Positions 7,191 through 21,085 of a stretch of DNA of 64,000 nucleotides are shown here, in pieces. Position 1 is the first letter of the stretch, and every line of letters starts with the position of its first letter. Below the pieces are notes generated by a model. The model searched no databases, was not told the origin of the DNA, and saw only the letters and a program-made list of their open reading frames with translations. This DNA is from Candidatus Cybelea sp. (GTDB lineage Bacteria; Vulcanimicrobiota; Vulcanimicrobiia; Vulcanimicrobiales; Vulcanimicrobiaceae), in assembly GCA_049695635.1 (NCBI GenBank), contig JBAVSO010000047.1:1388-65387 (forward strand), written 5' to 3'. A program made the translations under genes and the position numbers.

Positions 7191-8645
7191 ATGAAGTTCG
7201 GTATTCACCTGGCGGCCTTTCTTATTTGCGCTACTGTCGTCGTCGGACGCGCCGTCGCAGACTCGGCGATCGACGTGCATCCTTCCCGGGTGCTAGCGCC
7301 GGTCAATGCCGGCGTCATGGGCGCCGGCTCAGACAACTGGTTCAACGATACGCTATCGGGATTGTATCAGTCGTTTTTGAGCTCCGGAATCACCCAGACG
7401 CGTTACCCGGGCGGCTCCCAGGCCGATATCTACCATTGGGAAACCGGAACGGACGGACCGGGCGCGTGCGCCGGCAACGCCAATCCGAAATCGAACTTCG
7501 ACAACTTTATGCAAGACGTCGCGCTACCGGCAGACCTCGCCGTCGCAATTACCGTGAACTATGGCTCAAACTTGGAATGCACCGGAGGCGGCGATCCTTC
7601 GGAGGCAGCCTCTTGGGTTGCCTACGCGAACGCAACGAGGTACTACGCCATCCAATGGTGGACCGTGGGCAACGAGCAGTATACGAAGGGGTCGGTCGAC
7701 CTTTACTCTGAGCACCGCGATCCCGCGCAGTACGCAGCGAACGAGCAGGCATTTTATAATGCGATGCACGCTGCCTCGCCAACGCCGATCAACGTCTGCG
7801 TCGACGGTGACCCGCAAAACACGCACAACCATTGGGACGAAGTGGTTTTTTCTCAAGCACGCTACGATTGCGTCGAACTCCACTATTACCCGCAGCACGG
7901 GCGAGTGGACGACGAGTTTCTCGTCGACCAAGCCGGTCCCGCGATTACGACGTTCGTCAATGCGGCGAAGACGCAGCTTGCAGCGGCCGGTCATCCAAAC
8001 GCGCCGATCTATCTCGGCGAGATCGGCTCGACGACCGGCCCTTGCGGCAAGCAGTGTCAGTCAATCACGCAGGCACTCTACGCCGGTCAGGTCATCGGCG
8101 AACTCCTCAACGATAACGTCGCTCGCGCGACCTGGCATCTTGCCTTCACGGGCTGCAATCCTCGGGGCGCGGGGGGCGACTTCCGCAAGTCGTTGTACGG
8201 CTGGCAGGACTACGGCGGCGCTGAGATTTTTTCGGATGACAACCCTGGCGGCTGCAAAGGCGATTCGGCCCCGCTCGGGACGCTGGTAGCGACGGCGAAT
8301 GCTTTTCAGGTTGCATCGTACTTCGTCCGGGCCGGCGAGAGCATGGTGGGCGTTTCAGTGGACGGCTCGTCGAACGTCCGCGCCTACGCCTCGACCTATC
8401 TCGGCGGCTATGCGCTCCTGATCTTCAACCTCGACGAGACGAACGCGGTGGACGCGACGATCTCGATCGATGGACAGGCGTACGGACCGGGGGGCACGGT
8501 CGCGACTTATGACAAGAAGCTTTACGACTATTCGCGGCAGGGCGTCTGGAGCGCGCCCCTGGTGACGTCGCTTCCAGGATGGAGTGGGAGTCTGGCGGTT
8601 AGGCTTCCGGCATGGAGCATGACGGCGGTTCAGGTGACGCCCTAG
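7191..8645 (+). CDS. Secreted glycoside hydrolase, clan GH-A (TIM-barrel) type; family not assignable by eye
   Basis: AGGAG precedes ATG 7191 and a signal peptide is present. It contains RYPGGSQADIYHW and WWTVGNEQY (an NE acid/base-type motif as in GH30/39/51/79) and LGEIGS. The C-terminal region is beta-rich. Confidence 0.6.
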   Translation: MKFGIHLAAFLICATVVVGRAVADSAIDVHPSRVLAPVNAGVMGAGSDNWFNDTLSGLYQSFLSSGITQTRYPGGSQADIYHWETGTDGPGACAGNANPKSNFDNFMQDVALPADLAVAITVNYGSNLECTGGGDPSEAASWVAYANATRYYAIQWWTVGNEQYTKGSVDLYSEHRDPAQYAANEQAFYNAMHAASPTPINVCVDGDPQNTHNHWDEVVFSQARYDCVELHYYPQHGRVDDEFLVDQAGPAITTFVNAAKTQLAAAGHPNAPIYLGEIGSTTGPCGKQCQSITQALYAGQVIGELLNDNVARATWHLAFTGCNPRGAGGDFRKSLYGWQDYGGAEIFSDDNPGGCKGDSAPLGTLVATANAFQVASYFVRAGESMVGVSVDGSSNVRAYASTYLGGYALLIFNLDETNAVDATISIDGQAYGPGGTVATYDKKLYDYSRQGVWSAPLVTSLPGWSGSLAVRLPAWSMTAVQVTP

Positions 8646-8660
8646 ACATCCGGCAAACTC

Positions 8661-10103
8661 CTAGTTCGTATCGGGCGGCCGCAGATCGACGGGTTGGTGC
8701 AAGAAGAAGCTCTCGCGGTACTTGCTCGAGATCGGCACGAACGCGCGCGGCGATTGTGAGAAGTCAAAGCAATCTCTGGCCGGCGAAGTGGCACGCGTAT
8801 CGCTGGCGGATAGCGGCGCTAAGCCGAAGCGGTCTTCGACGAACTTGAGGATGCTGCCGTGTTCGTAGTGAACGTGCGAAACGAAGCCCTGCTTCGCATA
8901 CGGTGAAATGATCAGCATCGGGATTCGGCCGTCGAGACCGTCGTAATCAACGTAGGCCGGCGGCTCTGAATCGTAAAACCCGCCGTAATCGTCCCAGAAG
9001 ACAAAGATCGCTGTGGAGCCCCAGAACTGCGACTCGCCGATTGCGTTGACGAGCGAGGCTACCCAAGAAGGACCGGTGTCCGAGTTGCAGCCGGGATGGT
9101 CGGAGTTGGCGCAGGTCGGCACGATCCAGGTGACCGCGCGAAGATTGCCATTCTGTATGTCGGTGAAAAATTTGGTCTGAGGCGAGATAACGTCCGCACT
9201 CCAATCGGCGCCGTAGCAAATGTGCTTCACCGCTTGATAGGCGCTCCAAATGCCGTTGTTCTCTTTATACGAATCACCCTCGATTTTGCTTGCACCGCAC
9301 GCTCCGCCCGGGCCGCTTTGAACGGGCGCGGCGTAAAACGCCCAGGGCTGGCCGGCCGCGTCGAGCTCATCGCCGAGCGTGGTATAGTCGAAGCAGTCCT
9401 GAACCTTCGCTCCGTAGCCTCGTTGAGCGTTGGTGGTATAGACCCAGTCGGGAGCCCCACCTGGGCAACCCCAGTTACTCACCGGATAGTTGATTGCCGC
9501 TCCAGCTTGCGCGGCAATGATGTATTGGTGCGAAACGTAGCTGCTGCTATCAAAGTTGGAGGCATACATCTCGTCGGCTAAGACGTACTGCTGCGCCATC
9601 GAAAAGTAAGGCGCGGTTTCGTACTGCGGAACGTAGCTGTACGGCGGATACTTGATCGGGCACTTGGGTTGGCTTGCCGTGCCGCAGGTCCACGTCTCGT
9701 TATCGAACCCGTTCATCCGGCAATCCGTACCCGGAATGCTACCGGTGCCGTTGCACGCCGCTTCAAAGCCTTCGGCATTGTGCTCGAGGTCCCACGACGT
9801 CGCCAAACCGATCGGTTTGAGCTTGACGCGCTCGTTTTTAGAATCGTAGCCGTACGTCTTGGTCTTGGCTCCGGGGAAGCCGTAAAAGAGGTCGTTGAAG
9901 CTCCGATTCTCTTGAACGATGATAACGACGTGATCGATCTTGTCGATCGAATGCGCGAGGCGCCCGATCGCAACGGGACCAGGCCGCCCGTTGGCGTTGG
10001 GCGGCTCGCTGGACGAGCCGAGGCCGCCGCTGCGGCAGCTCGCAATGAGGAGTTGCGCAGCGGCGATCGCCAGTAAGCGTCTTACCGGCGATATTCGACC
10101 CAT
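8661..10103 (-). CDS. Phosphoesterase-family lipoprotein (PLC / AcpA acid phosphatase family), paralog 1
   Basis: Lipobox LIASC. Family hallmarks: IDHVVIIVQENRSFNDLFYGFPG, NSDHPG, GPSWVASLVNAIGESQFW, FVFWDDYGGFYD, ISPYAK, YEHGSILKFVE. It starts 3 nt after the S53 peptidase stop. Confidence 0.8.
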   Translation of the reverse strand: MGRISPVRRLLAIAAAQLLIASCRSGGLGSSSEPPNANGRPGPVAIGRLAHSIDKIDHVVIIVQENRSFNDLFYGFPGAKTKTYGYDSKNERVKLKPIGLATSWDLEHNAEGFEAACNGTGSIPGTDCRMNGFDNETWTCGTASQPKCPIKYPPYSYVPQYETAPYFSMAQQYVLADEMYASNFDSSSYVSHQYIIAAQAGAAINYPVSNWGCPGGAPDWVYTTNAQRGYGAKVQDCFDYTTLGDELDAAGQPWAFYAAPVQSGPGGACGASKIEGDSYKENNGIWSAYQAVKHICYGADWSADVISPQTKFFTDIQNGNLRAVTWIVPTCANSDHPGCNSDTGPSWVASLVNAIGESQFWGSTAIFVFWDDYGGFYDSEPPAYVDYDGLDGRIPMLIISPYAKQGFVSHVHYEHGSILKFVEDRFGLAPLSASDTRATSPARDCFDFSQSPRAFVPISSKYRESFFLHQPVDLRPPDTN

Positions 10104-10106
10104 CGG

Positions 10107-11393
10107 TTAGAAGGCGCCCAATCCGTTGGGCGTTCCGAGTCCCGTCGGTCCGTCGTAGCCGACTTCGCCGGTGCAAAGGTAGTCGTATGGTGCGCACTGC
10201 CCGTTGCTGCCGCTGGTAACGTCGTAGAGGTCGTTCGGCTTGGCATATGCGAGCGATGCGGGAATACCGGCGGTGTTACCGGAGAGCGCGTAAATCGCGG
10301 CGATCGCCGGCGAGCCGACGCTCGTGCCGCCCCAGACTTGCCACCCGGGCGATTCGCCGTCACCTGGAATGGACTCGTAGACGGCTACGCCGGTGTTCGG
10401 GTCTGCGATGTACGCAACGTCCGAGGTAATGCGATTAGTACAACCGCCCAACTGCTGCTCGATTGGCGCTTGCCACGACGACTCAGGAATGTACTGGCTG
10501 CAGCCGCTGCCTGCGCCGCCCCAAACGGTCTCCGTATAGCCGCGCGAACCCTTGGCGGTGTAGAGCGAGGTGCCCCCAACCGCTGTCACGGTGTTCGCTG
10601 AGGACGGGAAGATGACGCCGTATCCGCCGTCGCCCGATGAGGCAGTGATCGCGACGCCGGGATCACTGAAGAGGCGGTGTTCGGAGGGGTTCTCGCCCTT
10701 AAATTCGCCGCCGCCCCAGCTATTGGAGATGGCAACGGGATGGGCTCTCTGCGCAACAAGCTCGGCTTTGCCCAGGCTCGTGCTCGCTTCAACGACGAGA
10801 ATCTTACAGTTCGGACAGTTTGCGGAAACCATGTCAACGTCGAGCGATTGCTCCGCGAGCCAACCCTTGATCACCGGCGGCTTCGGGCGACCTTTGCCTT
10901 GTTGGTTTACGATCGTAAGGCAGCCCGACTTTCGACCGCACGGCGGCAACCCGAACTGCTTGCGATAGACCGCGAGATCCGAGGCGAGGCTCGGATCGCC
11001 ACCGGCTTCGACGACAGCGACCAGGCCGCCGGGGTTTTTCTGCGCAGCCTTGGTAATGTTGTACGCCGCTTGAAGTTGCGAGGGTCCCCAGCCTTGCACC
11101 GAGCCGTTAACGCCGGCTTCCGAGCGAGGCGCGCGAGACTTATCTTTCAATCCCAGCGCAAGGCAACGCCCTTCCCCGAAAACGATGTCGGGACAGGCTT
11201 CTATGAAATTTCCAGCCGCAATCTGGCGTTGAACGTACGCCGCGCCCTCGTTCGATTGGAGAGGCGCCGTGTAACCTGCGGGCTGGGAGCCGGTTGAGGG
11301 TGTCATCCCTCCGCTGCAACCTGCTGCCAGCGCGGCGATAACGCCGGCAGCGCAGAAGCGCACGAAGTTGTGCGCCATAAATTTGATTCGCAT
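10107..11393 (-). CDS. S53 (sedolisin/kumamolisin-like) serine peptidase, lipoprotein
   Basis: Lipobox LAAGC. AEQSLDVDMVSA matches the sedolisin E-x-x-x-D catalytic pair, NSWGG the oxyanion region, and GGTSVGSP the catalytic Ser motif. Confidence 0.7.
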   Translation of the reverse strand: MRIKFMAHNFVRFCAAGVIAALAAGCSGGMTPSTGSQPAGYTAPLQSNEGAAYVQRQIAAGNFIEACPDIVFGEGRCLALGLKDKSRAPRSEAGVNGSVQGWGPSQLQAAYNITKAAQKNPGGLVAVVEAGGDPSLASDLAVYRKQFGLPPCGRKSGCLTIVNQQGKGRPKPPVIKGWLAEQSLDVDMVSANCPNCKILVVEASTSLGKAELVAQRAHPVAISNSWGGGEFKGENPSEHRLFSDPGVAITASSGDGGYGVIFPSSANTVTAVGGTSLYTAKGSRGYTETVWGGAGSGCSQYIPESSWQAPIEQQLGGCTNRITSDVAYIADPNTGVAVYESIPGDGESPGWQVWGGTSVGSPAIAAIYALSGNTAGIPASLAYAKPNDLYDVTSGSNGQCAPYDYLCTGEVGYDGPTGLGTPNGLGAF

Positions 11394-11526
11394 GCAGTAC
11401 CTTTCAAAAGAGCTGCGACGGTCGTAAGAGGGCGGGCCTTTGGCAATCGGCCTCGCCGGTCCCCCCTTAGCGAGGTAGCGACGGCGATTCGCCGCGCTCG
11501 TTTGATCTGCGCGCTTGTGTAGCTTG

Positions 11527-11564
11527 TATAAAAAGAGAGGACCGCCCCATTTCTGGGGCGATCC
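11527..11564 (-). terminator. Intrinsic terminator inside the 5' leader of the S53 peptidase gene
   Basis: The minus strand reads ggatcgcccc-agaaat-ggggcggtcc, a 10-bp stem with one mismatch, followed by tctctttttata. It lies about 135 nt upstream of ATG 11393. Confidence 0.5.
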
Positions 11565-11893
11565 TTGCCCCGTGGAGTTTCAGCAGCGTGGAACTTGCAC
11601 TGGAGCAATGGGACGCTTGGAGCGCCCGCTTCGCGCTCCCTTGGTACATTCGTACCAATTTTTCACGATTTCTTATGTTTTCCCGGAGCTCGTCCACGGC
11701 GTCACGCATCTAAAGTCGAGTCCTCGATGCCGCTGGTTCGTACGAGGTCCGGCGCGCCGGCGAGATTGGCAGACTGCTACGGTCAAGAATCATCAATAAA
11801 GATGACTTGAGGCATCGCTAGTCAGGGGGGAATTGCTCCCGGCTTCGTCATAGCAGTGACCCGGATAGCCCGCCACTTTAAGGAGAAAGCTAG

Positions 11894-13357
11894 ATGCGTC
11901 GCATTCCGGTCCGGAGCCGGCCGCTAATGGCCGCGACCGCGGCGCTTTGCTTTTCCGCTTGCGGGGGGAAGGCCGGCTTCGGTACGCCGGCGACGCTGCC
12001 GGCTACCGGCTATCAGAGTATCTCGGCGGTTCGGGAGCTCGGTCACGCCAAGAGCAAGATTCAACACGTCGTCATCATCATCCAAGAGAACCGCAGCTTC
12101 AACAACCTGTTCTACGGTTATCCTGGGGCAAAGACCGTAAAGTACGGCCTCGACTCAAAAAAGCAGAAAGTCACGCTTCAACCGATCGGCTTGGCGACGT
12201 CGTGGGATCTCGAGCACAATCCAAACGGATTCATAGCGGCCTGCAACGGTACCGGAAAAAAAATTCCCGGCACCGAATGCCGGATGAACGGCTTCGATCG
12301 TGAGAAATGGACCTGCGATACTCCGAAGCACCCGAAGTGCCCGATCGAGTACCCGCCGTACGCATACGTACCCCATAGTGAGACTAAACCGTACTTCGAT
12401 ATGGCCCACCAGTACGTGTTGGCCGACGAGATGTTCGCCTCAAACTTCGATTCGACGAGCTTCATGTCGCACCAATACATTATCGCCGGCGTGAATCCCG
12501 ACGCGTCGATCGGTATTCCCGATGGGGCGTGGGGCTGCCCCGGAGGCAAGAGCGATCGGATTTCGATCTTGGGCTCCAACCGGGTTTGGCCGGTCGGGTC
12601 GGAACGCCCGTGCTGGGATCAAGAGACGCTCGGTGACGAGCTCAACAAGGCCGGCAAGTCGTGGTCGTTTTACGCAACACCGCTCGGAGACGAGAACAGC
12701 AAGACGTGCGGGCACAAGGGCGATGACGCCGCCGGCGAAGGTTCGTCGAACGGACGCGGGATCTGGAGCGCCTATCAGACGATCGAGTATATTTGCTACG
12801 GTCCCGCCTGGAACGCGCACGTCATGACGCCGCCCTCGAAGTTTCTCAACGACATCGGAAGAGGAAAGCTCAGCGACGTCACGTGGATCACGCCGACGTT
12901 TGCGAACTCCGATCACGGAGGATCGGGGTCGGCAACGGGTCCGTCGTGGGTTGCCTCGCTCGTCAACGCAATCGGCGAGTCGCAATACTGGGACTCGACT
13001 GCAATCTTTGTATTTTGGGACGACTACGGCGGCTGGTACGATCCGGAGGCACCTGAGCACCTAGACAATGACGGACTCGGCATGCGCCTTCCGCTGTTGA
13101 TAATTTCGCCATACGCGAAGACTGGATACGTATCGCATACCCACTACGAACACGGCAGCATCCTGAAGTTCGTCGAGAACACTTTTGGACTTGCGAGGAT
13201 GAACTCGCCCGACGGCAGCGACGTGCGGGCGAATCCGCCTGACGATGCATTCGACTTCTCGCAGGCACCGCGAAAGTTCGTACCGATACATGCTCCGCTT
13301 AATGGGAATTATTTCAAACTCCAGCCGCTCGATTGGCGGCCTCCCGATTCGGATTGA
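11894..13357 (+). CDS. Phosphoesterase-family lipoprotein (PLC / AcpA family), paralog 2
   Basis: AAGGAG precedes ATG 11894 and the lipobox is FSAC. It shares the motif set of paralog 1: IQHVVIIIQENRSFNNLFYGYPG, NSDHGG, GPSWVASLVNAIGESQYW, FVFWDDYGGWYD, YEHGSILKFVE. Confidence 0.8.
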   Translation: MRRIPVRSRPLMAATAALCFSACGGKAGFGTPATLPATGYQSISAVRELGHAKSKIQHVVIIIQENRSFNNLFYGYPGAKTVKYGLDSKKQKVTLQPIGLATSWDLEHNPNGFIAACNGTGKKIPGTECRMNGFDREKWTCDTPKHPKCPIEYPPYAYVPHSETKPYFDMAHQYVLADEMFASNFDSTSFMSHQYIIAGVNPDASIGIPDGAWGCPGGKSDRISILGSNRVWPVGSERPCWDQETLGDELNKAGKSWSFYATPLGDENSKTCGHKGDDAAGEGSSNGRGIWSAYQTIEYICYGPAWNAHVMTPPSKFLNDIGRGKLSDVTWITPTFANSDHGGSGSATGPSWVASLVNAIGESQYWDSTAIFVFWDDYGGWYDPEAPEHLDNDGLGMRLPLLIISPYAKTGYVSHTHYEHGSILKFVENTFGLARMNSPDGSDVRANPPDDAFDFSQAPRKFVPIHAPLNGNYFKLQPLDWRPPDSD

Positions 13358-13486: not shown

Positions 13487-14944
13487 ATGGAAACGCTTGG
13501 TCCGTCATTACCGCCTCCCGCATCCACGCTCGTGACGACAAATGGCTTGCACCGGCAGCCTGTGGCTGAATCAATGCCCGTACACCACTCCAACGGACGA
13601 CGGAAGATCGCCGTCATCGGAACCGGGTACGTCGGGCTGGTCACCGGAACGTGTTTAGCGGAACTGGGGCAATCGGTGATTTGCCTCGATACCGACTCGC
13701 ATAAGATCGCGATGCTCCGGCGCGGCGAAGTGCCGTTCTTCGAACCGCACCTGCTCGAGATGACCGTGAGCAATCATCACGCCGGCCGGCTTTCATTTTC
13801 CGAGGATGTGGAAGCGGGCGTGCGCGACTGCGGAATAGTCTTCATCGCTGTCGGAACGCCCATGCGTCACGACGACCACGCCGATCTTTCGGCGATCTGG
13901 GACGTCGCGGCGCTGATCGGCCGACAGCTCAATGGCCCTAAGATCGTCGTGTTGAAATCTACCGTGCCGGTTGATACCTGCGAGATGGTCGCGGCGATCG
14001 TCGCAGAGAATGCCGTCGAACCTCACCGCGTCGACGTCGTAAGCAACCCGGAGTTTCTCCGGGAGGGATCGGCCGTCGCGGACTTCATGCGCCCCGACCG
14101 CATCGTCGTCGGCACGAGCAATCCGCAAACGGAAGCGATCATCCGCGAGCTTTACGCTCCGCTCGACGCACCGTTCGTCGTAACGAACGTTCGAACGAGC
14201 GAAATGATTAAGTACGCGGCTAACGCATTCTTGGCCACGAAGGTTTCGTTTATAAACGAGATCGCAAACATATGCGAGCTCGTCGAGGTCGACGTTAAGG
14301 CGGTTGCAAGCGGGATCGGCTTCGACCATCGCATCGGCACGCAGTTCATGAGCGCCGGCATCGGGTACGGCGGCTCGTGCTTTCCCAAAGACGTCCGGGC
14401 GTTGGAGAGGACCGCGCACGGCCGAAGCTACGAAGCCACGCTCCTACGTTCGGTGGAGAGCGTCAACCGTTCGCAGATCCCGCGCACTTTCGCGAAGATT
14501 GAAAAGGCCCTCGACGGCTCGGTCGAAGGCAGGACCATCTGCGTGCTGGGGCTCGCGTTCAAGCCGAACACCTCCGATATCCGGGAAGCTCCGGCGATTC
14601 ATCTGATCGAGCTGTTCTTGCGCTCGGGGGCGCGGGTTAACGTTCACGACCCGATCGCGCTCGAGGAGGCGCGGGCCAGGGTCGGCGACGACGTCACCTA
14701 TTGTTTGGACATGTACGAAGCAATTAACGGATGTGACGTCCTCGTATTGGCGACCGAATGGAATGAGTACAAGAGCATCAACTTCCGGATCGTTAGAAAG
14801 CTGATGCGCGGAAACGTCGTCTTCGACGGCCGCAACATCTTCGACGCCGAGAAGGTCACGCTCGAGGGATTGCGCTACATCGGCGTCGGACGCGCGAAAG
14901 AGCCAAGCGTCGTTGATCTAGCGTACGTGGAAGCTGCCGAATGA
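13487..14944 (+). CDS. ugd: UDP-glucose 6-dehydrogenase
   Basis: Rossmann motif KIAVIGTGYVGLVTG, catalytic Cys context GYGGSCFPKD, and a typical C-terminal UDP-binding domain. I chose ATG 13487 because GGAG lies 8 nt upstream. ATG 13574 is an alternative. The track start at 13364 is unlikely. Confidence 0.85.
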   Translation: METLGPSLPPPASTLVTTNGLHRQPVAESMPVHHSNGRRKIAVIGTGYVGLVTGTCLAELGQSVICLDTDSHKIAMLRRGEVPFFEPHLLEMTVSNHHAGRLSFSEDVEAGVRDCGIVFIAVGTPMRHDDHADLSAIWDVAALIGRQLNGPKIVVLKSTVPVDTCEMVAAIVAENAVEPHRVDVVSNPEFLREGSAVADFMRPDRIVVGTSNPQTEAIIRELYAPLDAPFVVTNVRTSEMIKYAANAFLATKVSFINEIANICELVEVDVKAVASGIGFDHRIGTQFMSAGIGYGGSCFPKDVRALERTAHGRSYEATLLRSVESVNRSQIPRTFAKIEKALDGSVEGRTICVLGLAFKPNTSDIREAPAIHLIELFLRSGARVNVHDPIALEEARARVGDDVTYCLDMYEAINGCDVLVLATEWNEYKSINFRIVRKLMRGNVVFDGRNIFDAEKVTLEGLRYIGVGRAKEPSVVDLAYVEAAE

Positions 14945-14951
14945 AGCGCCC

Positions 14952-15920
14952 TTGAAGGTATTGGTCACGGGAGCCGCCGGCTTTCTAGGGTCGCACCTGG
15001 TCGATCGGCTCCTCGCAGACGGCGATCGCGTGGTCGGCGTCGACAACTTCGTAACCGGATCGGCTGCCAACCTCGAACACATCGGGAGCGATCTGCCTTT
15101 CGAATTCGTCAACGCCGACGTCTCGTTGCCATGGACCTGGGCGCAGAACGCCGAGAAGCCCGGTCTCATCATGCACTTTGCATCTCCTGCGAGTCCGGTC
15201 GACTACGGGCGCGAACCGCTCGCAACGATGTCCGTCAACGCGGTTGGCGCGATGCACGGCGTGGAGCTTGCGAACGCAAGCGGTGCGCGATTGCTCTTCG
15301 CTTCGACTTCCGAGGTCTACGGCGACCCGCTGGAGCACCCGCAGCGCGAGACGTATTGGGGTAACGTCAATCCGATCGGCGTTCGAGCATGCTATGACGA
15401 GGCGAAGCGCTATGCCGAAGCGTACGTGACGTCGGCGATTCGAATGCTCGGCATTGACGCGAGAATCGTGCGAATCTTCAACACTTACGGTCCCCGGATG
15501 CAGCCCGGCGACGGTCGCGTGATTCCTAACTTTTGCCTGGCGGCCCTGGCCGGCCGGCCGTTAACCGTCTACGGCAATGGGCGCCAAACGCGAAGCTTCT
15601 GCTACGTCAGCGATCTCGTCGAGGGAATCGTTCGTTTCGCCAAGCGCGACGTGGTCGCGGAGCGCGTCGTAAATCTGGGTAACCCGGATGAGTTCACGAT
15701 CAACGAACTCGCCGGTATCCTCTCGGACGTCGCCGGCGTACCGCTCGAAACGATTGCGTGCGAGTTGCCGCCTGACGATCCTACGCGCCGGCGGCCCGAC
15801 ATCGGACGGGCGCGCGCGCAGCTTGGTTGGGAACCCAAGGTAGCGCTTCGCGAGGGGCTTTCCGCAACCTTGAACTACTTTCGGACCGCGGCGCGCGGAG
15901 CCGAGACTCTCGCCCGCTGA
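14952..15920 (+). CDS. uxs: UDP-glucuronate decarboxylase (UDP-xylose synthase)
   Basis: TTG start. Collinear with the UXS family throughout: VTGAAGFLGSH, ASPASP, STSEVYGDP, NPIGVRACYDEAKRYAE (YxxxK), FNTYGPRM, GRQTRSF, DDPTRRRPDI. Confidence 0.88.
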   Translation: MKVLVTGAAGFLGSHLVDRLLADGDRVVGVDNFVTGSAANLEHIGSDLPFEFVNADVSLPWTWAQNAEKPGLIMHFASPASPVDYGREPLATMSVNAVGAMHGVELANASGARLLFASTSEVYGDPLEHPQRETYWGNVNPIGVRACYDEAKRYAEAYVTSAIRMLGIDARIVRIFNTYGPRMQPGDGRVIPNFCLAALAGRPLTVYGNGRQTRSFCYVSDLVEGIVRFAKRDVVAERVVNLGNPDEFTINELAGILSDVAGVPLETIACELPPDDPTRRRPDIGRARAQLGWEPKVALREGLSATLNYFRTAARGAETLAR

Positions 15921-15948
15921 GCCGGAGAAAACAGAAACTAGGCTTACC

Positions 15949-17412
15949 ATGACAACCGCCCTATTAGTACTTCTTGTAGCGTATAGCGTCGTGTATATTG
16001 CGACCCAGTCGTTCTACGCGCTGGGCCTGCTCACCACTGCGTATATTTTCAGCCTCCCCGTCGACTGGGTCGACATGAACGAGAAGGTTTCGGAGCCGGA
16101 GAGCGAGTGGCCGTACATCGTCTTGTTCTATCCCGTCTTGCGTGAATTAGAAACGACGATGCGCACGACGATGCTCTCGCTCACGAAGCTCGAGTACCCG
16201 GCGGACCGGTACCGCGTCGTCGCGATCCCGAACAGCGACGATACCGAAACGATCGCCAGCCTTCGCCGGCTCATGGCCGAGTTTCCGTTTCTCAAGATGC
16301 TCGAGGTACCGCCAACCAGCGATCCATCCTGGCAAATCGTCTGGGATGCTTGGGACGCTAATCCAAAAGCCTATTGGTGGCATCAAGGCCGCCGCGCCGG
16401 CGACCGATTTCTACCCCCGAAGAAGACGCGTCAGCTGATCTACGCGCTCTACCGCACCGCCGAAGAGCTCAAGCACGAGAAGAATCTCGCGATTAACTAC
16501 ATTGACGCCGACAGCTGCCCGCCGAAGGATCATTTCAAGGGGGCCGTTATCGGCTTTAAACATTACGACGTGCTGCAATCCCTCAACGTCGCCGGCAACC
16601 TAAACAAATCGCAGGCCGCCGCGTGGCATGCCTTCGATCACATGGCCTGGGACGGCTGGATGTACCCACACTTGTCGGCGCACGGACGCCAGCCATATTG
16701 GGTGCTCGGTAAGGGGCTCTTCTATCGCGTTTCGGACCTGATTCCGTTAGGGGGCTTCCATCCGTGGATAACGATCGAAGATCCAGAGATCGGGCTGCGG
16801 TACTGGATGAACGGTAAGCGCCTTGGCATCCTCCGAAGTCCTCTCATCGAGGAGGTTCCGGAAACCTGGCGGGAAGGCATCACGCAGCGCAAGCGCTGGG
16901 TATGCGGTTTCTTCCAATCGCTAGGCGCGCCCCTGGGCTACATGGGGATGAATTTCTGGCAGCGTCTCAAGTCCTGGCTGATCTTTGTCCCGTGCCTGTC
17001 TCTGAGTATTAACAGCGTCGGTCTTTTCCTTGGCGCGATCGCTGCCTACGCATATTTCGTGCATGATAAGTGGCTGCCGCTGTGGGCAATCGACCTGTCC
17101 GGCGCCGATATCATCATGGTATTGGCACTCATGGCCGTGCTCTACGTCATTGTGTGGCGCCGAACGGGGTTGGTTCTAACTCGATGGCAGGATCGGGTTT
17201 GGTATATGATCCGCGTCAATCCGCTGTCGGCCTTCATCTGGTGGTTCCTCTGGATCATTCCGCTGGTAATCGGTTTTCGCATGTATCTGCTCGATGAGGG
17301 TCTGGCGTGGCAGCGCACCGAGAAAATCGACGCCAATAAGCTGCTGATCCGTAAGAAGATTAGAGACCAAGCAACTGTTCTAAGCCAAAGCGGGGAGCCA
17401 AATCGTGAGTAA
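15949..17412 (+). CDS. Integral-membrane family-2 glycosyltransferase, processive synthase type (D,D,D,QxxRW)
   Basis: Two N-terminal and at least three C-terminal hydrophobic helices flank a GT-A domain. The domain carries DAD (YIDADS), IEDPE and QRKRW, as in BcsA/HasA/Cps3S/NodC/PgaC-type synthases. Confidence 0.8.
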   Translation: MTTALLVLLVAYSVVYIATQSFYALGLLTTAYIFSLPVDWVDMNEKVSEPESEWPYIVLFYPVLRELETTMRTTMLSLTKLEYPADRYRVVAIPNSDDTETIASLRRLMAEFPFLKMLEVPPTSDPSWQIVWDAWDANPKAYWWHQGRRAGDRFLPPKKTRQLIYALYRTAEELKHEKNLAINYIDADSCPPKDHFKGAVIGFKHYDVLQSLNVAGNLNKSQAAAWHAFDHMAWDGWMYPHLSAHGRQPYWVLGKGLFYRVSDLIPLGGFHPWITIEDPEIGLRYWMNGKRLGILRSPLIEEVPETWREGITQRKRWVCGFFQSLGAPLGYMGMNFWQRLKSWLIFVPCLSLSINSVGLFLGAIAAYAYFVHDKWLPLWAIDLSGADIIMVLALMAVLYVIVWRRTGLVLTRWQDRVWYMIRVNPLSAFIWWFLWIIPLVIGFRMYLLDEGLAWQRTEKIDANKLLIRKKIRDQATVLSQSGEPNRE

Positions 17413-18538
17413 ACATGTGCTCGTCACCGGCGGAGCCGGGTTCATCGGATCGCACGTCGTCGACGGGCTGTTGGCCCGCGGCCATGAGGTGACCGTGCTC
17501 GACAACCTGTTACCGCAGGTGCACGGTGACGCCGAGCGCGACGCCGACGGCTGGCCGATCTACTTAGACCCGAGAGCGAAGCGAATCGCCGGAGACCTGA
17601 TCGACGCCGATCTCTTCGAAGCGAGCCTCAAGGGCGTGACGCATCTCGTTCATTTGGCTGCTTCGGTCGGAGTCGGTCAGAGTATGACGAACATCGTCGA
17701 TTACACGCGCAACAACGTCATGACCGCCGCCGGCATGCTGCAAGTTCTCTCGCAGCGCCCGCACACGGTCGAGCGCGTGATCGTGGCCTCGTCGATGTCC
17801 ATCTACGGGGAAGGCGCGTACCGCCTGCCGTCGGGAGCGATCGTCGCGCCTGAGCTGCGAAGCCACGATCAGCTTGCGGCCCGTCGCTGGGAGCTTTCAC
17901 TCGACGGCGAGGAGCTGATCCCGATTGCGACCACGGAGGAAAAACTGCTCAAGCCGGCCTCGATCTACGCAATCAACAAGCGCGACCATGAGGAAATGTT
18001 CGTCGCCGTCGGCCGTGCGTTGCAGATACCGACGGTCGCCTTGCGCTTATTCAACGCGTATGGTTCGCGCCAAGCTCTGAGCAATCCATATACCGGCGTC
18101 GCCGCCATTTTCATCTCTCGCCTGCTCAACGACCAGTCTCCTTTGGTTTTTGAAGACGGAAATCAGCAGCGCGACTTCGTGCACGTCCATGACGTCGCCA
18201 ATGCCTTCGTAACCGTGCTCGACAGCGACCGCGCGGTCTGGGACGTTTTCAACGTCGGAAGCGGGTCTCCGATTACGGTTGCGGAGATCGCGACCACCCT
18301 GGCGCGCATGCTCGGAAAAGACATTGCGCCGGAATTCCTTGGTAAGTACCGCGTCGGCGACATCCGGCACTGCTTTCCGGACATTTCGAAAATCGACGAA
18401 ACCTTCGGTTTTAAACCCCAGCGCTCGTTTGACGAAGGGATGCAGGAGCTCATCAGCTGGGTTAGCGTAACGAAGGCGCCGGTCGATCGAACCAAGACGA
18501 CCGTTGCGGAACTTGAAAAGCAAAAGCTGCTGGTCTAG
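17405..18538 (+). CDS. NAD-dependent sugar-nucleotide epimerase/dehydratase (extended SDR)
   Basis: GTG 17405 overlaps the GT2 stop by 8 nt. Motifs GGAGFIGSH, SSMSIYG and YAINK (YxxxK). The reaction specificity cannot be called. Confidence 0.75.
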   Translation: MSKHVLVTGGAGFIGSHVVDGLLARGHEVTVLDNLLPQVHGDAERDADGWPIYLDPRAKRIAGDLIDADLFEASLKGVTHLVHLAASVGVGQSMTNIVDYTRNNVMTAAGMLQVLSQRPHTVERVIVASSMSIYGEGAYRLPSGAIVAPELRSHDQLAARRWELSLDGEELIPIATTEEKLLKPASIYAINKRDHEEMFVAVGRALQIPTVALRLFNAYGSRQALSNPYTGVAAIFISRLLNDQSPLVFEDGNQQRDFVHVHDVANAFVTVLDSDRAVWDVFNVGSGSPITVAEIATTLARMLGKDIAPEFLGKYRVGDIRHCFPDISKIDETFGFKPQRSFDEGMQELISWVSVTKAPVDRTKTTVAELEKQKLLV

Positions 18539-18597
18539 CAGCGAGACACTACACGCACGCTATCCTTCCGCGCACGCGGGTTGAGGGGTGAACGAAA

Positions 18598-19338
18598 TTG
18601 TCGCAAACGCGAGGAAAACGTCGAGTCGAGCGAGTCGTGGCTCTAGCCGCCGCAGGCTTCCTGATGCTGGCGTCGCTGCCGGCGCGGGTCTTGGCCGACG
18701 ACAACAACGTCGAGCTTTTTGCCGGAGCTCAGCTCGACTTCGCCAACTACGTCTTTATCGGCGCGACCATTTCGCTGCCGCGGCCGCCAAGCAGCAACGG
18801 CTCGAACAACGGATTTGCCGTTCGCGGCGAGTTGGATGCGGGCGGCTACAACTACCTCAGCAGCGACCTCGGTACCGTCAAGGCAAACTTTGGCGGAGGT
18901 GAGCTCGACGGCGTCTATCAGGTAGAGCACAAGAACCTTTTCGCCGATTTCTCTCTTGGCGTCAACGATACGTACACGAACCTAGTGCCGAACGATCCCA
19001 CCAACAAGCTGCGCGGAAACCAGACCGAGCTTCGCGTCGGCACCGACGGCAGCTCGCTCTCCGGACCCTATCGTTTGGATTGGTACGGCTACTACGGCCC
19101 GAAGCTCGAGGACTATGCGGCCTTCATCGGGGGTACGCATTCATTATCTCCGATCTGGCGGCTGGGGCTCGAAGGCTACAGTGAGGGCAATCCCAGTTAC
19201 AGTCTTTATCAGGTCGGCCCATACGCCGGCTTCGCCTTTGACAAGACCTCGGAGATTGACTTTTCGGTCGGCGAGGCCTGGCAATCCGGATTTTCGCCAC
19301 GCATCTACTCGCGAGCCATTTACTTGCGGCGTATCTGA
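18598..19338 (+). CDS. Secreted beta-rich protein, possible small outer-membrane barrel (BcsS-like guess)
   Basis: A signal peptide (..LMLASLPARVLA) is followed by G/Y/N/D-rich sequence with alternating hydrophobic residues. It sits last in the GT2 locus. The BcsS resemblance is from memory and is unverified. Confidence 0.45.
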   Translation: MSQTRGKRRVERVVALAAAGFLMLASLPARVLADDNNVELFAGAQLDFANYVFIGATISLPRPPSSNGSNNGFAVRGELDAGGYNYLSSDLGTVKANFGGGELDGVYQVEHKNLFADFSLGVNDTYTNLVPNDPTNKLRGNQTELRVGTDGSSLSGPYRLDWYGYYGPKLEDYAAFIGGTHSLSPIWRLGLEGYSEGNPSYSLYQVGPYAGFAFDKTSEIDFSVGEAWQSGFSPRIYSRAIYLRRI

Positions 19339-20525
19339 CGCAGGCGCTTTGCGTACCAGAGGGCGTCTCTGATCGCGTAGTACATCGGCTTCGGCTGCAT
19401 CGATGAATCGAACGGCAGCCCCCGGTTGAGGCCCGGGCCGCTGCCGTTGGCCCAGGCGCCCGGAAATCGTGCGTAATCCTGCGGCGTAACCGAGAGCCAC
19501 GAGTGCCGGTCGCTCAATCCCCACGTCGTCACTCCCAGAACATTAGACTGGTTTAGGACGATATCGAGATAGCGTCGGGTTTCGTCGGCGACCATCCGGT
19601 CGCGGTCTGCTTCCGACGCGACGTAGTCGGCTTCTTTGACGTCGAGCTCGGTGACGGTAATCGAGAGACCCATATCCGCAACTTCTCTGAGGAATGGCAC
19701 GAGCGCCGTCTGTGAAACGCGTCCTTTACTCAAATCGAGGTGCGACTGCAAGCCGAGTCCGTCGAGCGGCGTCTTCGTCTGTTTTAAGCGCTCGAGAAGC
19801 TTCAGCAAAAGGTAACGCCGGTCGCGCTCTTCGACGTTGTCGTACTCAAGGCCATACTCGTTGACGAGCAACTGTCCCTTGGGAGCGAAGATTCGAGCCT
19901 GCTGCAGGGCGCGGCTTATGTAGTCGGGGCCGAACGCCTGCAGGAAGACGTTCTCGCGCAGACCGTCCATGCGGTGTCCGACGTCGATCACTTCGTTGAC
20001 GACCTCCCAAGTGTTGATGACGTCGCCGTATCGGGGTATGACGGAGGCAAAGTACCGCGCGATGAGATTCCAATCGGGACGCTCGCGAAGCATTTCGTCG
20101 GCCCACTGCGGCACGCTGAGATGCCACAGCAACATGTGCCCGCGCAGGCTCTTCCCGTTGGCGATCGCAAAAGCCGCAAGCTCATCCATCTTGCCGAAGG
20201 AAAGCTCGCCGTAAGCGGGCTCGACCGAGCTCCAGTTCATTTCGTATTCGGGGACGAGCTGCCGGCATTCGCGCAGCACGGCGTCGCGCAGATCTTGCTG
20301 GGTGCTGAGCTGCTCGATTTTGACCGCCGATCCAAAGAAGCGCCCGCCATGCGCCGCAGCGGCTTCCAGGGTCGCAGCCGAAGCGCCCCCCGCGGTCGCG
20401 CCCAAGGCCACACCCGCGGCTAGCATCCTCGCAATTGCATCGCGACGGGTCAATGCCCCTCGCGCAGAGTCATCAATAGAAATGTCTGAGCCCTGACCTC
20501 CGTCACGTCCCATCGCTGCTATCAC
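19320..20525 (-). CDS. GH10 endo-1,4-beta-xylanase with twin-arginine (Tat) signal
   Basis: Tat leader LTRRDAIARMLAAGVALGATAGGASA. WEVVNEV holds the acid/base Glu and ITVTELDV the nucleophile Glu, both in classic GH10 contexts. Its 3' end overlaps the convergent gene by 19 nt. Confidence 0.85.
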   Translation of the reverse strand: MIAAMGRDGGQGSDISIDDSARGALTRRDAIARMLAAGVALGATAGGASAATLEAAAAHGGRFFGSAVKIEQLSTQQDLRDAVLRECRQLVPEYEMNWSSVEPAYGELSFGKMDELAAFAIANGKSLRGHMLLWHLSVPQWADEMLRERPDWNLIARYFASVIPRYGDVINTWEVVNEVIDVGHRMDGLRENVFLQAFGPDYISRALQQARIFAPKGQLLVNEYGLEYDNVEERDRRYLLLKLLERLKQTKTPLDGLGLQSHLDLSKGRVSQTALVPFLREVADMGLSITVTELDVKEADYVASEADRDRMVADETRRYLDIVLNQSNVLGVTTWGLSDRHSWLSVTPQDYARFPGAWANGSGPGLNRGLPFDSSMQPKPMYYAIRDALWYAKRLRQIRRK

Positions 20526-20607: not shown

Positions 20608-20689
20608 GGGCAAGTGGCGGAACTGGCAGACGCGCTGGATTTAGGATCCAGTGGGGCGACCCGTCAGAGTTCGAGTCTCTGCTTGCCCA
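20608..20689 (+). tRNA. tRNA-Leu (anticodon TAG), long variable arm
   Basis: Acceptor gggcaag/cttgccc, anticodon stem ctgga/tccag with loop tTTAGga, a long variable arm, T-arm cagag-ttcgagt-ctctg. Confidence 0.85.
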
Positions 20690-21013
20690 CACAAGCCGTC
20701 CTAGCCCGAAATGAGTTTAGCCCAGCGAATCGTTTCTTTTGAGATTTCAAGCGAAGCCAGGGAGGCCTAATTAAAACTAGCGAGCTGGTTTCGGGGGGAG
20801 GCTCTTGGTTCGCACGGCGTCTGAATGCGCCCGAAACTTAAGGATCGATTTTGACTAAGCGAGATATGAAGATTCGTGCAGTCGAGGAGGCTCTGACCGA
20901 CGAGCGAAGCCACGGATGGCGTAAGCGAGGAGGCAGTGCAGCAGGAGCGGAGCCTGGACGGCGCAGTGACGAGCGGCTCCGAGACGCACGAATCTTGATA
21001 TCGAGCGACACCT

Positions 21014-21085
21014 GCGGAAGTAGCTCAGTGGTAGAGCATCGCCTTGCCAAGGCGAGGGTCGCGAGTTCGAATCTCGTCTTCCGCT
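21014..21085 (+). tRNA. tRNA-Gly (anticodon GCC)
   Basis: Acceptor gcggaag/cttccgc, anticodon stem tcgcc/ggcga with loop tTGCCaa, T-loop agttcgaatct. Confidence 0.9.

Follow-up and report, generated by a model that had tools for sequence, protein, structure and literature searches.

A 64,000-nucleotide stretch of DNA from Candidatus Cybelea sp. (hereafter the window) carries, at positions 13487–20525, six packed genes which we read as a self-contained synthase-dependent exopolysaccharide (EPS) module of a diderm Eremiobacterota bacterium. The genes encode a UDP-glucose 6-dehydrogenase (Ugd), a UDP-glucuronate decarboxylase (UXS), a membrane glycosyltransferase of family 2 (GT2), an extended short-chain dehydrogenase/reductase (SDR2), a predicted outer-membrane β-barrel of the BcsS family, and a glycoside hydrolase of family 10 (GH10). 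We put the probability of this reading, including the six-step scheme that follows, at roughly 0.7. We class the system, which is widely distributed and apparently uncharacterised, as a variant form of synthase-dependent EPS machinery and as an analogue of the arabinose-containing polysaccharide (APS) system of Sinorhizobium.

In the proposed scheme, Ugd would oxidise UDP-glucose (UDP-Glc) to UDP-glucuronate (UDP-GlcA) in the cytoplasm, and UXS would decarboxylate UDP-GlcA to UDP-xylose (UDP-Xyl). SDR2, translationally coupled to the synthase, would catalyse a C4 epimerisation, most likely of UDP-Xyl to UDP-L-arabinopyranose and alternatively of UDP-GlcA to UDP-galacturonate (UDP-GalA). The inner-membrane GT2, with QxxRW as its acceptor-binding motif, would polymerise these donors and thread the chain through its own membrane channel. 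In the periplasm, the GH10, exported by the twin-arginine translocation (Tat) pathway, would trim or release the chain, as BcsZ does for cellulose. The 12-strand BcsS-family barrel would handle the polymer at the outer membrane. The analysis establishes the gene identities, predicted folds, motifs, and conserved linkage; the substrates of SDR2 and GT2, processive synthesis, export, and the make-up of the polymer are inferred.

Gene content of the locus

The first five genes run on the plus strand: ugd (13487..14944), uxs (14952..15920), the GT2 gene (15949..17412; 487 aa), the SDR2 gene (17405..18538; 377 aa), and the barrel gene (18598..19338; 246 aa). The GH10 gene (19320..20525; 401 aa) lies on the minus strand and converges on this operon. 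Intergenic spacings are, in order, +7, +28, −8, +59, and −19 nt, such that the end of the GT2 gene and the start of the SDR2 gene share 8 nt and the GH10 gene overlaps the barrel gene by 19 nt. An AAGGAG Shine-Dalgarno sequence stands just 5′ of the ugd ATG at 13487 and favours this start, in an open reading frame (ORF) open from 13364 with an alternative ATG at 13574. An earlier note on this DNA, made from its letters and a listing of ORFs, had described these six genes, and our ORF listing reproduced them with the same coordinates, strands, and spacings. Every motif quoted in that note was also present (STSEVYGDP, CYDEAKRYAE, FNTYGPRM, and GRQTRSF in UXS; DAD, IEDPE, and QRKRW in GT2; WEVVNEV and TVTELDV in GH10). 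Pfam and NCBIfam profile scans of the locus genes and of the flanking genes scanned upheld its gene assignments. The base composition of the locus is ordinary relative to the rest of the window. One window protein is 100% identical to a protein of an NCBI Cybelea metagenome-assembled genome (MAG), and three MAG loci are 97% identical.

The two enzymes of precursor supply were readily assigned. Ugd contains three UDPG_MGDP_dh Pfam domains and scored 450 bits against TIGR03026 (cut-off 190). UXS matched the human UXS1 structures 2b69 and 4gll over its full length (323 bits, E = 1e-95), contains both catalytic motifs (STSE and YDEAK), and shares 47% identity across 311 residues with Uxs1 from the APS operon of S. 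fredii (E = 8e-99). On these sequence matches we take both identities as genuine, with the enzymatic activities predicted.

SDR2 matched PF01370 in two stretches, with an insertion of ~35 aa. Its motifs are GGAGFIGS (GxxGxxG), SSMSIYG, and YAINK (YxxxK). SSMSIYG departs from the corresponding motif of UXS (STSE) and of dehydratases, as no acidic residue follows its catalytic Ser. Among solved structures, the closest relatives of SDR2 are 4-epimerases (6dnt, 6wj9, MoeE5 6kv9, and 4zrm), and SDR2 scored under the cut-off on all NCBIfam equivalogs (GalE, 143 bits versus 262). These features point to a 4-epimerase-type extended SDR, with UDP-Xyl and UDP-GlcA as candidate substrates.

Paralogues of SDR2 (46–51% identical) sit in a second, unrelated conserved cluster type that also contains UXS (L086 9001-10107; L088 12530-13645; L089 8992-10104). 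As these paralogues co-occur with UXS, a pentose substrate (UDP-Xyl to UDP-L-Ara) is mildly favoured over conversion of UDP-GlcA to UDP-GalA. The second cluster type further encodes inositol-3-phosphate synthase, a histidine phosphatase, several GT4 enzymes, a TIGR04290 methyltransferase, and sometimes a TIGR04295 radical SAM protein. It was found in S. meliloti pSymB, Roseomonas mucosa, and Bradyrhizobium plasmids, and is apparently uncharacterised. We considered whether the S. meliloti homologue (46% identical) might be Uxe and rejected this, as it belongs to this different cluster, with its inositol-3-phosphate synthase, GT4, and methyltransferase genes.

The synthase candidate matched PF13632 (73 bits). 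Its layout comprises one N-terminal transmembrane helix, a GT-A domain, an interface helix bearing QRKRW, and three to four C-terminal transmembrane helices, with hydrophobic segments at residues 1–25, 342–371, 375–411, and 423–448. D98, DAD186–188, ED277–278 (within IEDPE, residues 276–280), and QRKRW313–317 are invariant among 46 homologues. An AlphaFold2 model (pLDDT, predicted local distance difference test, 85.7) was searched with Foldseek and gave BcsA as the best match (E = 1e-12, template modelling score 0.54–0.57), then hyaluronan synthases (HAS; E = 1e-11), plant CesA, and Chs1. The archaeal membrane GT2 mannosyltransferase 6yv7 was also among the fold matches. By sequence, BcsA was the only match in the PDB (E = 0.08 with the single sequence, 1.9e-6 with a family profile), and the profile similarity is restricted to the region from ED through QxxRW to the first transmembrane helix that follows.

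By motifs and predicted fold, then, GT2 is a BcsA/HAS-type membrane synthase, one that would be processive and would export its product. This agrees with the cellulose-synthase-style enzyme of the earlier note. We did not observe GT2 inside a clade of known specificity: its sole solved sequence relative is the distant BcsA, and it came near no NCBIfam equivalog cut-off (CelA TIGR03030, 28.4 bits versus 699). Pfam found no PilZ domain in it. A database label of "Glycosyltransferase XagB" is automatic and is without support, as the NCBIfam scan gave GT2 only this sub-threshold CelA match.

By sequence clustering, the GT2 family is both large and tight. The best 120 database clusters of the family are all at least 58% identical and ~480 aa long. 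Clustering of a library at 50% identity reduces it to a few full-length representatives above 470 bits, with the next full-length tier at only ~160 bits. One metagenomic representative (P0167, 1078 aa) carries an N-terminal Ser/Thr protein kinase domain fused to GT2 (residues 597–1068), which could be regulatory or a gene-calling artefact. A Neorhizobium relative (24% identity) was set aside, as it lies in an unrelated context adjoining repABC.

For the 246-aa protein, the earlier suggestion of a BcsS-like barrel was borne out. The protein scored 66.6 bits against PF17036 (CBP_BcsS; gathering score 24), a family carried by all 46 of its homologues (85 bits for the Brevundimonas counterpart). 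NCBI places its start 13 codons downstream (233 aa) and names it cellulose biosynthesis protein BcsS. The AlphaFold2 model (pLDDT 87) consists of a signal-peptide helix and 12 antiparallel strands. Its sequence had no match in the PDB, such that the fold search alone was informative. Foldseek returned outer-membrane barrels including the KdgM oligogalacturonate porin, autotransporter β-domains, FadL, and the PgaA secretin. The protein is thus a BcsS-family member with a predicted outer-membrane barrel fold. As Eremiobacterota have been inferred to be diderm (PMC6664022), an outer-membrane location is plausible.

An annotated bcsS also occurs on plasmid pBSY17_1 of Sphingobium sp. RAC03 (L090 4410-10416), where it is directly followed by a GH16 gene, with genes for a 602-aa glycosyltransferase and a SPOR-domain protein close by, outside any bcsAB operon. 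This arrangement hints that BcsS-type barrels pair with different synthase/hydrolase sets, and they may be a general outer-membrane accessory. The BcsS family would thereby gain a context, as a small outer-membrane barrel that accompanies differing sets of synthase and hydrolase.

The sixth gene product scored 230 bits against the GH10 family PF00331. Its N-terminus reads TRRDAI, a twin-arginine motif, followed by a hydrophobic stretch. Both catalytic glutamate motifs (WEVVNE, acid/base; TVTELD, nucleophile) are kept across 81 sequences, and the cluster copies retain further GH10 motifs (H..W, QxH, and W..SW).

Conservation of the neighbourhood in two phyla

To the evidence from the individual genes we add that of their linkage. 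We scanned one genome per species and obtained 192 loci with a GT2 relative. Of these, 80 were retrieved and the 67 with at least 4.5 kb on both sides were counted (23 Eremiobacterota-type, 44 proteobacterial). Genes within 5 kb of GT2 were treated as partners, and were called both by tblastn with the window proteins and by independent all-against-all ORF clustering. SDR2 was present at 66 of the 67 loci, directly downstream of GT2 with a median gap of 59 nt. GH10 was present at 63 loci and UXS at 56. Ugd (42 loci) and the BcsS-like gene (39 loci) were each found at all 23 Eremiobacterota-type loci, and at 19 and 16, respectively, of the 44 proteobacterial ones. The earlier note had proposed such a check of whether the neighbourhood is conserved. 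Recurring as it does in dozens of genomes, the arrangement lies well outside what chance would produce.

SDR2 showed the highest between-phylum identity of the set (66–84%, with 56–73% for GT2). As SDR2 is both the most conserved partner and the one most tightly linked to GT2, the GT2–SDR2 pair forms the core of the system. GH10 occurs in three arrangements: downstream and convergent (47 copies), upstream and divergent (18), and downstream and co-directional (16), with two copies at nine loci. This linkage has survived rearrangement across two phyla, and GH10 is therefore part of the system and no chance neighbour.

Two more conventional explanations were also considered. The earlier note had raised the alternative that the GH10 is a scavenger of plant xylan placed here by coincidence, and the GH10 family is indeed dominated by plant-xylan endoxylanases. 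Linkage at 63 of 67 loci, in two phyla and three arrangements, refutes this alternative, and neither the ORF listing nor Pfam revealed xylose-uptake or catabolic genes in the locus. An ordinary cellulose (Bcs) system is likewise suggested by the NCBI name of the barrel protein. The likeness to such systems is real: D, DxD, ED, and QxxRW motifs mark the membrane GT2 of each, a dedicated periplasmic endo-hydrolase is encoded with the synthase, and the window shares with some bcs operons a BcsS-family protein, there an accessory; BcsA is also the top structural match of the window GT2. However, the window GT2 is only 487 aa long with ~4–5 transmembrane helices, lacks the C-terminal PilZ domain, and scored 28 bits on the BcsA model (CelA, cut-off 699). 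Its hydrolase belongs to GH10 and not GH8, and Pfam detected no BcsB, TPR-barrel BcsC, or GH8 BcsZ among the six locus genes and the flanking genes scanned. The window also encodes steps to UDP-GlcA and UDP-Xyl, and an epimerase step, that cellulose does not need, and BcsS-family barrels pair with other hydrolases too, such as the GH16 of Sphingobium. We therefore regard a chance-placed scavenger or an ordinary cellulose locus as very improbable.

The cluster was found in Eremiobacterota and in many Alphaproteobacteria (Devosia, Reyranella, Brevundimonas, Caulobacteraceae, Aureimonas, Mesorhizobium, and sphingomonads), with one further locus in a Bordetella-labelled MAG. In Eremiobacterota, a soil phylum with few cultured members, its presence points to a matrix polymer. 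Cultured, tractable strains also carry the cluster, among them Brevundimonas diminuta ATCC 11568, Devosia species, Reyranella massiliensis, Reyranella soli, Aureimonas ureilytica, and Rhizobium sp. BG4. In the last of these, megaplasmid pRPC1 has the order GH10-UXS-Ugd-GT2-SDR2-GH10. A PAS-GGDEF-EAL gene adjoins this cluster (L001 3360-5096), which suggests its control by cyclic di-GMP (c-di-GMP) in this strain. Two ORFs downstream of the BG4 cluster (450 and 329 aa) have no Pfam match.

The first gene of Devosia-type clusters (Devosia sp. Naph2, L039 2661-5424, and 13 similar loci) encodes a 213-aa protein and overlaps with its stop the start of UXS. This protein has a sub-threshold match to the xylan-binding module CBM60 (24 bits versus 28), which we treat only as a hint. 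Upstream of the divergent GH10, these loci encode a BTAD-domain protein.

Several observations weigh against reading the locus as a complete EPS module. Four Eremiobacterota loci run Ugd-GT2-SDR2-BcsS-GH10 and lack UXS locally, and at several Reyranella loci both UXS and Ugd are missing from the neighbourhood, so that the supply of UDP-Xyl does not belong strictly to the core. As a BcsS-like gene was detectable at just 16 of the 44 proteobacterial loci, the outer-membrane step is either not universal or is served there by another protein. Reviews list BcsS merely as an accessory component of cellulose operons. The automatic JGI (Joint Genome Institute) label for the SDR2 family is dTDP-L-rhamnose 4-epimerase; we did not adopt it, as the name is automatic and the locus contains no dTDP-rhamnose genes. 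In literature of incomplete coverage, we found no paper dealing with the GT2 family, with any bacterial xylan synthase, or with a cluster that joins UXS, GT2, and GH10. Lastly, only ~4–5 transmembrane helices are predicted for GT2, which we take to be fewer than in BcsA or HAS and similar to NodC. A complete channel is therefore not assured, which leaves room for a NodC-like enzyme that does not export a polymer.

Such a GT2 would synthesise short oligosaccharides or, as a polyprenyl-phosphate glycosyltransferase, would feed periplasmic glycosylation. Along with the few helices (1 + 3–4), the presence of the 6yv7 mannosyltransferase among the fold matches and the many proteobacterial loci without an outer-membrane component are in line with this explanation. 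Nevertheless, we consider it improbable. QxxRW and ED are hallmarks of the processive GT2 class, and both QRKRW and ED are invariant in this family. BcsA and HAS head the fold matches, and a conserved periplasmic endo-type hydrolase together with an outer-membrane barrel suits an exported polymer. The reading we prefer remains an EPS module built around a processive synthase.

The polymer and known pathways

Within this reading of the locus as an EPS module, our working guess for the product is a β-linked polymer containing xylose and/or arabinose, possibly with uronate. The earlier note had proposed a candidate xylan- or glucuronoxylan-like system. The architecture behind that proposal stood, while the product was weakened by the linkage of SDR2, by the variant motif of the GH10, and by the precedent of APS.

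The GH10 motif concerns a position before the first conserved Trp, where solved xylanases read EN.MK(W). Within canonical ENxMKW, Asn (N44 of Cex) and Lys (K47) bind xylose at the −2 subsite, as in Cex and CjXyn10A. The window GH10 reads EYEMNW. In 80 aligned cluster GH10s the Asn is absent throughout, its place being taken by I, F, W, Y, L, V, or T. Lys persists in 48 of the 80 and gives way to N or Q in the other 32, among them all Eremiobacterota copies. The overall pattern of the cluster-linked copies is E-[I/F/W/Y/L/V]-x-[L/M]-[K/N]-W. Thus, while the cluster enzymes share the Pfam family and both catalytic motifs with GH10 xylanases such as Cellulomonas fimi Cex and Streptomyces lividans XlnA, they differ in an ENxMKW motif that is altered in all 80 cluster-linked copies. 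The window gene is also embedded in a biosynthetic cluster and not in a xylan-utilisation locus. Judged from these alignments, the cluster GH10s are a distinct variant subgroup. The non-canonical residues suit an enzyme adapted to a polymer that the cell itself makes, and not to plant xylan, and they caution against assuming plain β-1,4-xylan. GH10 genes in soil metagenomes are routinely tallied as plant-xylan degradation, yet members of this subgroup probably serve a polymer of their own host.

A GH10 gene annotated as endo-1,4-β-xylanase also lies within a Wzy-type EPS cluster on a plasmid of Rhizobium sp. CCGE532 (L003 8842-9990), which also contains Ugd, three GT2 genes, and a gene resembling O-antigen ligases. 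GH10 in a biosynthetic context is therefore not unique to the window system.

A plain polymer of the β-1,4-xylan or glucuronoxylan type, for which GT2 would draw directly on UDP-Xyl, alone or along with UDP-GlcA, and which a true endoxylanase would cut, would account for the presence of UXS at 56 and GH10 at 63 of the 67 loci. An inverting BcsA-like GT2 would yield β-linkages from UDP-α-D-Xyl, and the CBM60 match of the Devosia-type 213-aa protein points the same way, although its 24 bits fall below the Pfam threshold of 28. However, an epimerase is not needed for xylan, and yet an epimerase-type SDR2 is the tightest, most conserved, and near-universal partner of GT2. The complete loss of the canonical Asn among the 80 cluster GH10s, together with that of the Lys in Eremiobacterota copies, further weakens this explanation, and some loci have no local UXS. 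A plain xylan homopolymer is thus somewhat disfavoured, and we consider the plain xylan or glucuronoxylan explanation as a whole unlikely.

The closest characterised analogue is the APS operon. Secondary accounts describe the Sinorhizobium operon uxs1-uxe-apsS-apsH-apsE as directing a Congo-red-binding, arabinose-containing polysaccharide under the control of CuxR and c-di-GMP. A bacterial GT2 synthase system supplied with pentose thus already has a precedent. In a plasmid record, the S. fredii APS cluster encodes an AraC regulator, Uxs1 (347 aa), Uxe (328 aa), and ApsS (618 aa; PF13632), along with a protein weakly similar to GH26, a member of DUF995, and a further ORF. Both systems pair a UDP-xylose synthase with an SDR of the epimerase type, a polytopic GT2 of PF13632, one or two glycoside hydrolases, and a small secreted accessory protein.

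This common logic is compatible with the window locus being an equivalent of APS, in which UDP-Xyl would be a mere intermediate, SDR2 would convert it to UDP-L-arabinopyranose, and GT2 would produce an arabinose-rich polymer. Such a refinement of the proposed module at the level of its product would accommodate an epimerase as the most conserved and tightest-linked partner of GT2, as well as the non-canonical ENxMKW motif of the GH10. The parts, however, are mostly not orthologous. ApsS is longer than the window GT2 (618 versus 487 aa) and matches it at merely E = 0.11, while Uxe (328 aa) and SDR2 (377 aa) are 28% identical. The APS hydrolase is weakly GH26-like where the window has GH10, and ApsE belongs to DUF995 where the window has a BcsS barrel. 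The APS operon lacks ugd and has an adjacent AraC-type cuxR; the window cluster has ugd and, by ORF listing and Pfam, no adjoining AraC/CuxR-type regulator gene. GH10 is moreover a xylanase family, for which cutting of an arabinopyranan is not obvious. We consider this product possible, though clearly short of even odds. Orthology with the APS operon itself was rejected. In pairwise comparison UXS was the sole ortholog, and the window locus is therefore a parallel system, an analogue of APS rather than a member.

Among other synthases, class I HAS (Chlorella virus and vertebrate), Cps3S, and NodC resemble the window GT2 in size (~420–570 aa) and in their order of N-terminal transmembrane segment, GT-A domain, interface helices, and C-terminal transmembrane segments. 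HAS structures rank right below BcsA in the fold search. HAS and Cps3S use UDP-GlcA from an operon-encoded Ugd. In contrast to this structural likeness, none has a detectable sequence-level relation to the window GT2, and the operons of HAS and Cps3S contain no UXS, no GH10, and no barrel for the outer membrane.

More broadly, the GT2 family may tentatively be viewed as a bacterial processive pentosan synthase, in which one BcsA/HAS-type enzyme would both polymerise and export a chain of xylose and/or arabinopyranose. Plants make xylan by Golgi GT43/GT47 enzymes in multi-enzyme complexes. The bacterial route would be independent of this plant route, would have its own variant GH10 and BcsS-type pore, and would have spread horizontally between Eremiobacterota and Alphaproteobacteria. 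We give this wider proposal less than even odds. To our knowledge, synthase-dependent bacterial exopolysaccharides are few: cellulose, poly-N-acetylglucosamine, alginate, curdlan, mixed-linkage glucan, hyaluronan, and the poorly defined APS. If true, the proposal would add a pentose-based member to this set and would offer a one-enzyme route to xylan-like or arabinan-like polymers.

Flanking sequence

An Rfam scan revealed no element, such as a c-di-GMP riboswitch, and no sigma-70-like promoter was found. Terminator-like matches were no more frequent than in shuffled sequence. Pfam and Rfam scans likewise gave no evident regulator or PilZ domain in the window. Between the GH10 start and a tig-clpP-clpX-valS block lie tRNA-Leu(TAG) (20608–20690) and tRNA-Gly(GCC) (21014–21085), and the ~320-nt spacer separating them has no Rfam match.

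On the other side of the locus, two paralogues of the PF04185 "phosphoesterase" family (8661–10103, minus strand; 11894–13357, plus strand) bracket a gene for a secreted 428-aa protein (10107–11393, minus strand). The latter has no Pfam match and contains a subtilase/sedolisin-like GTSxGSP motif. The region 7191–8645 was noted together with this phosphoesterase stretch (8661–13357). One to three PF04185 phosphoesterase genes per locus flank the EPS cluster at all 23 Eremiobacterota-type loci and at none of the proteobacterial ones.

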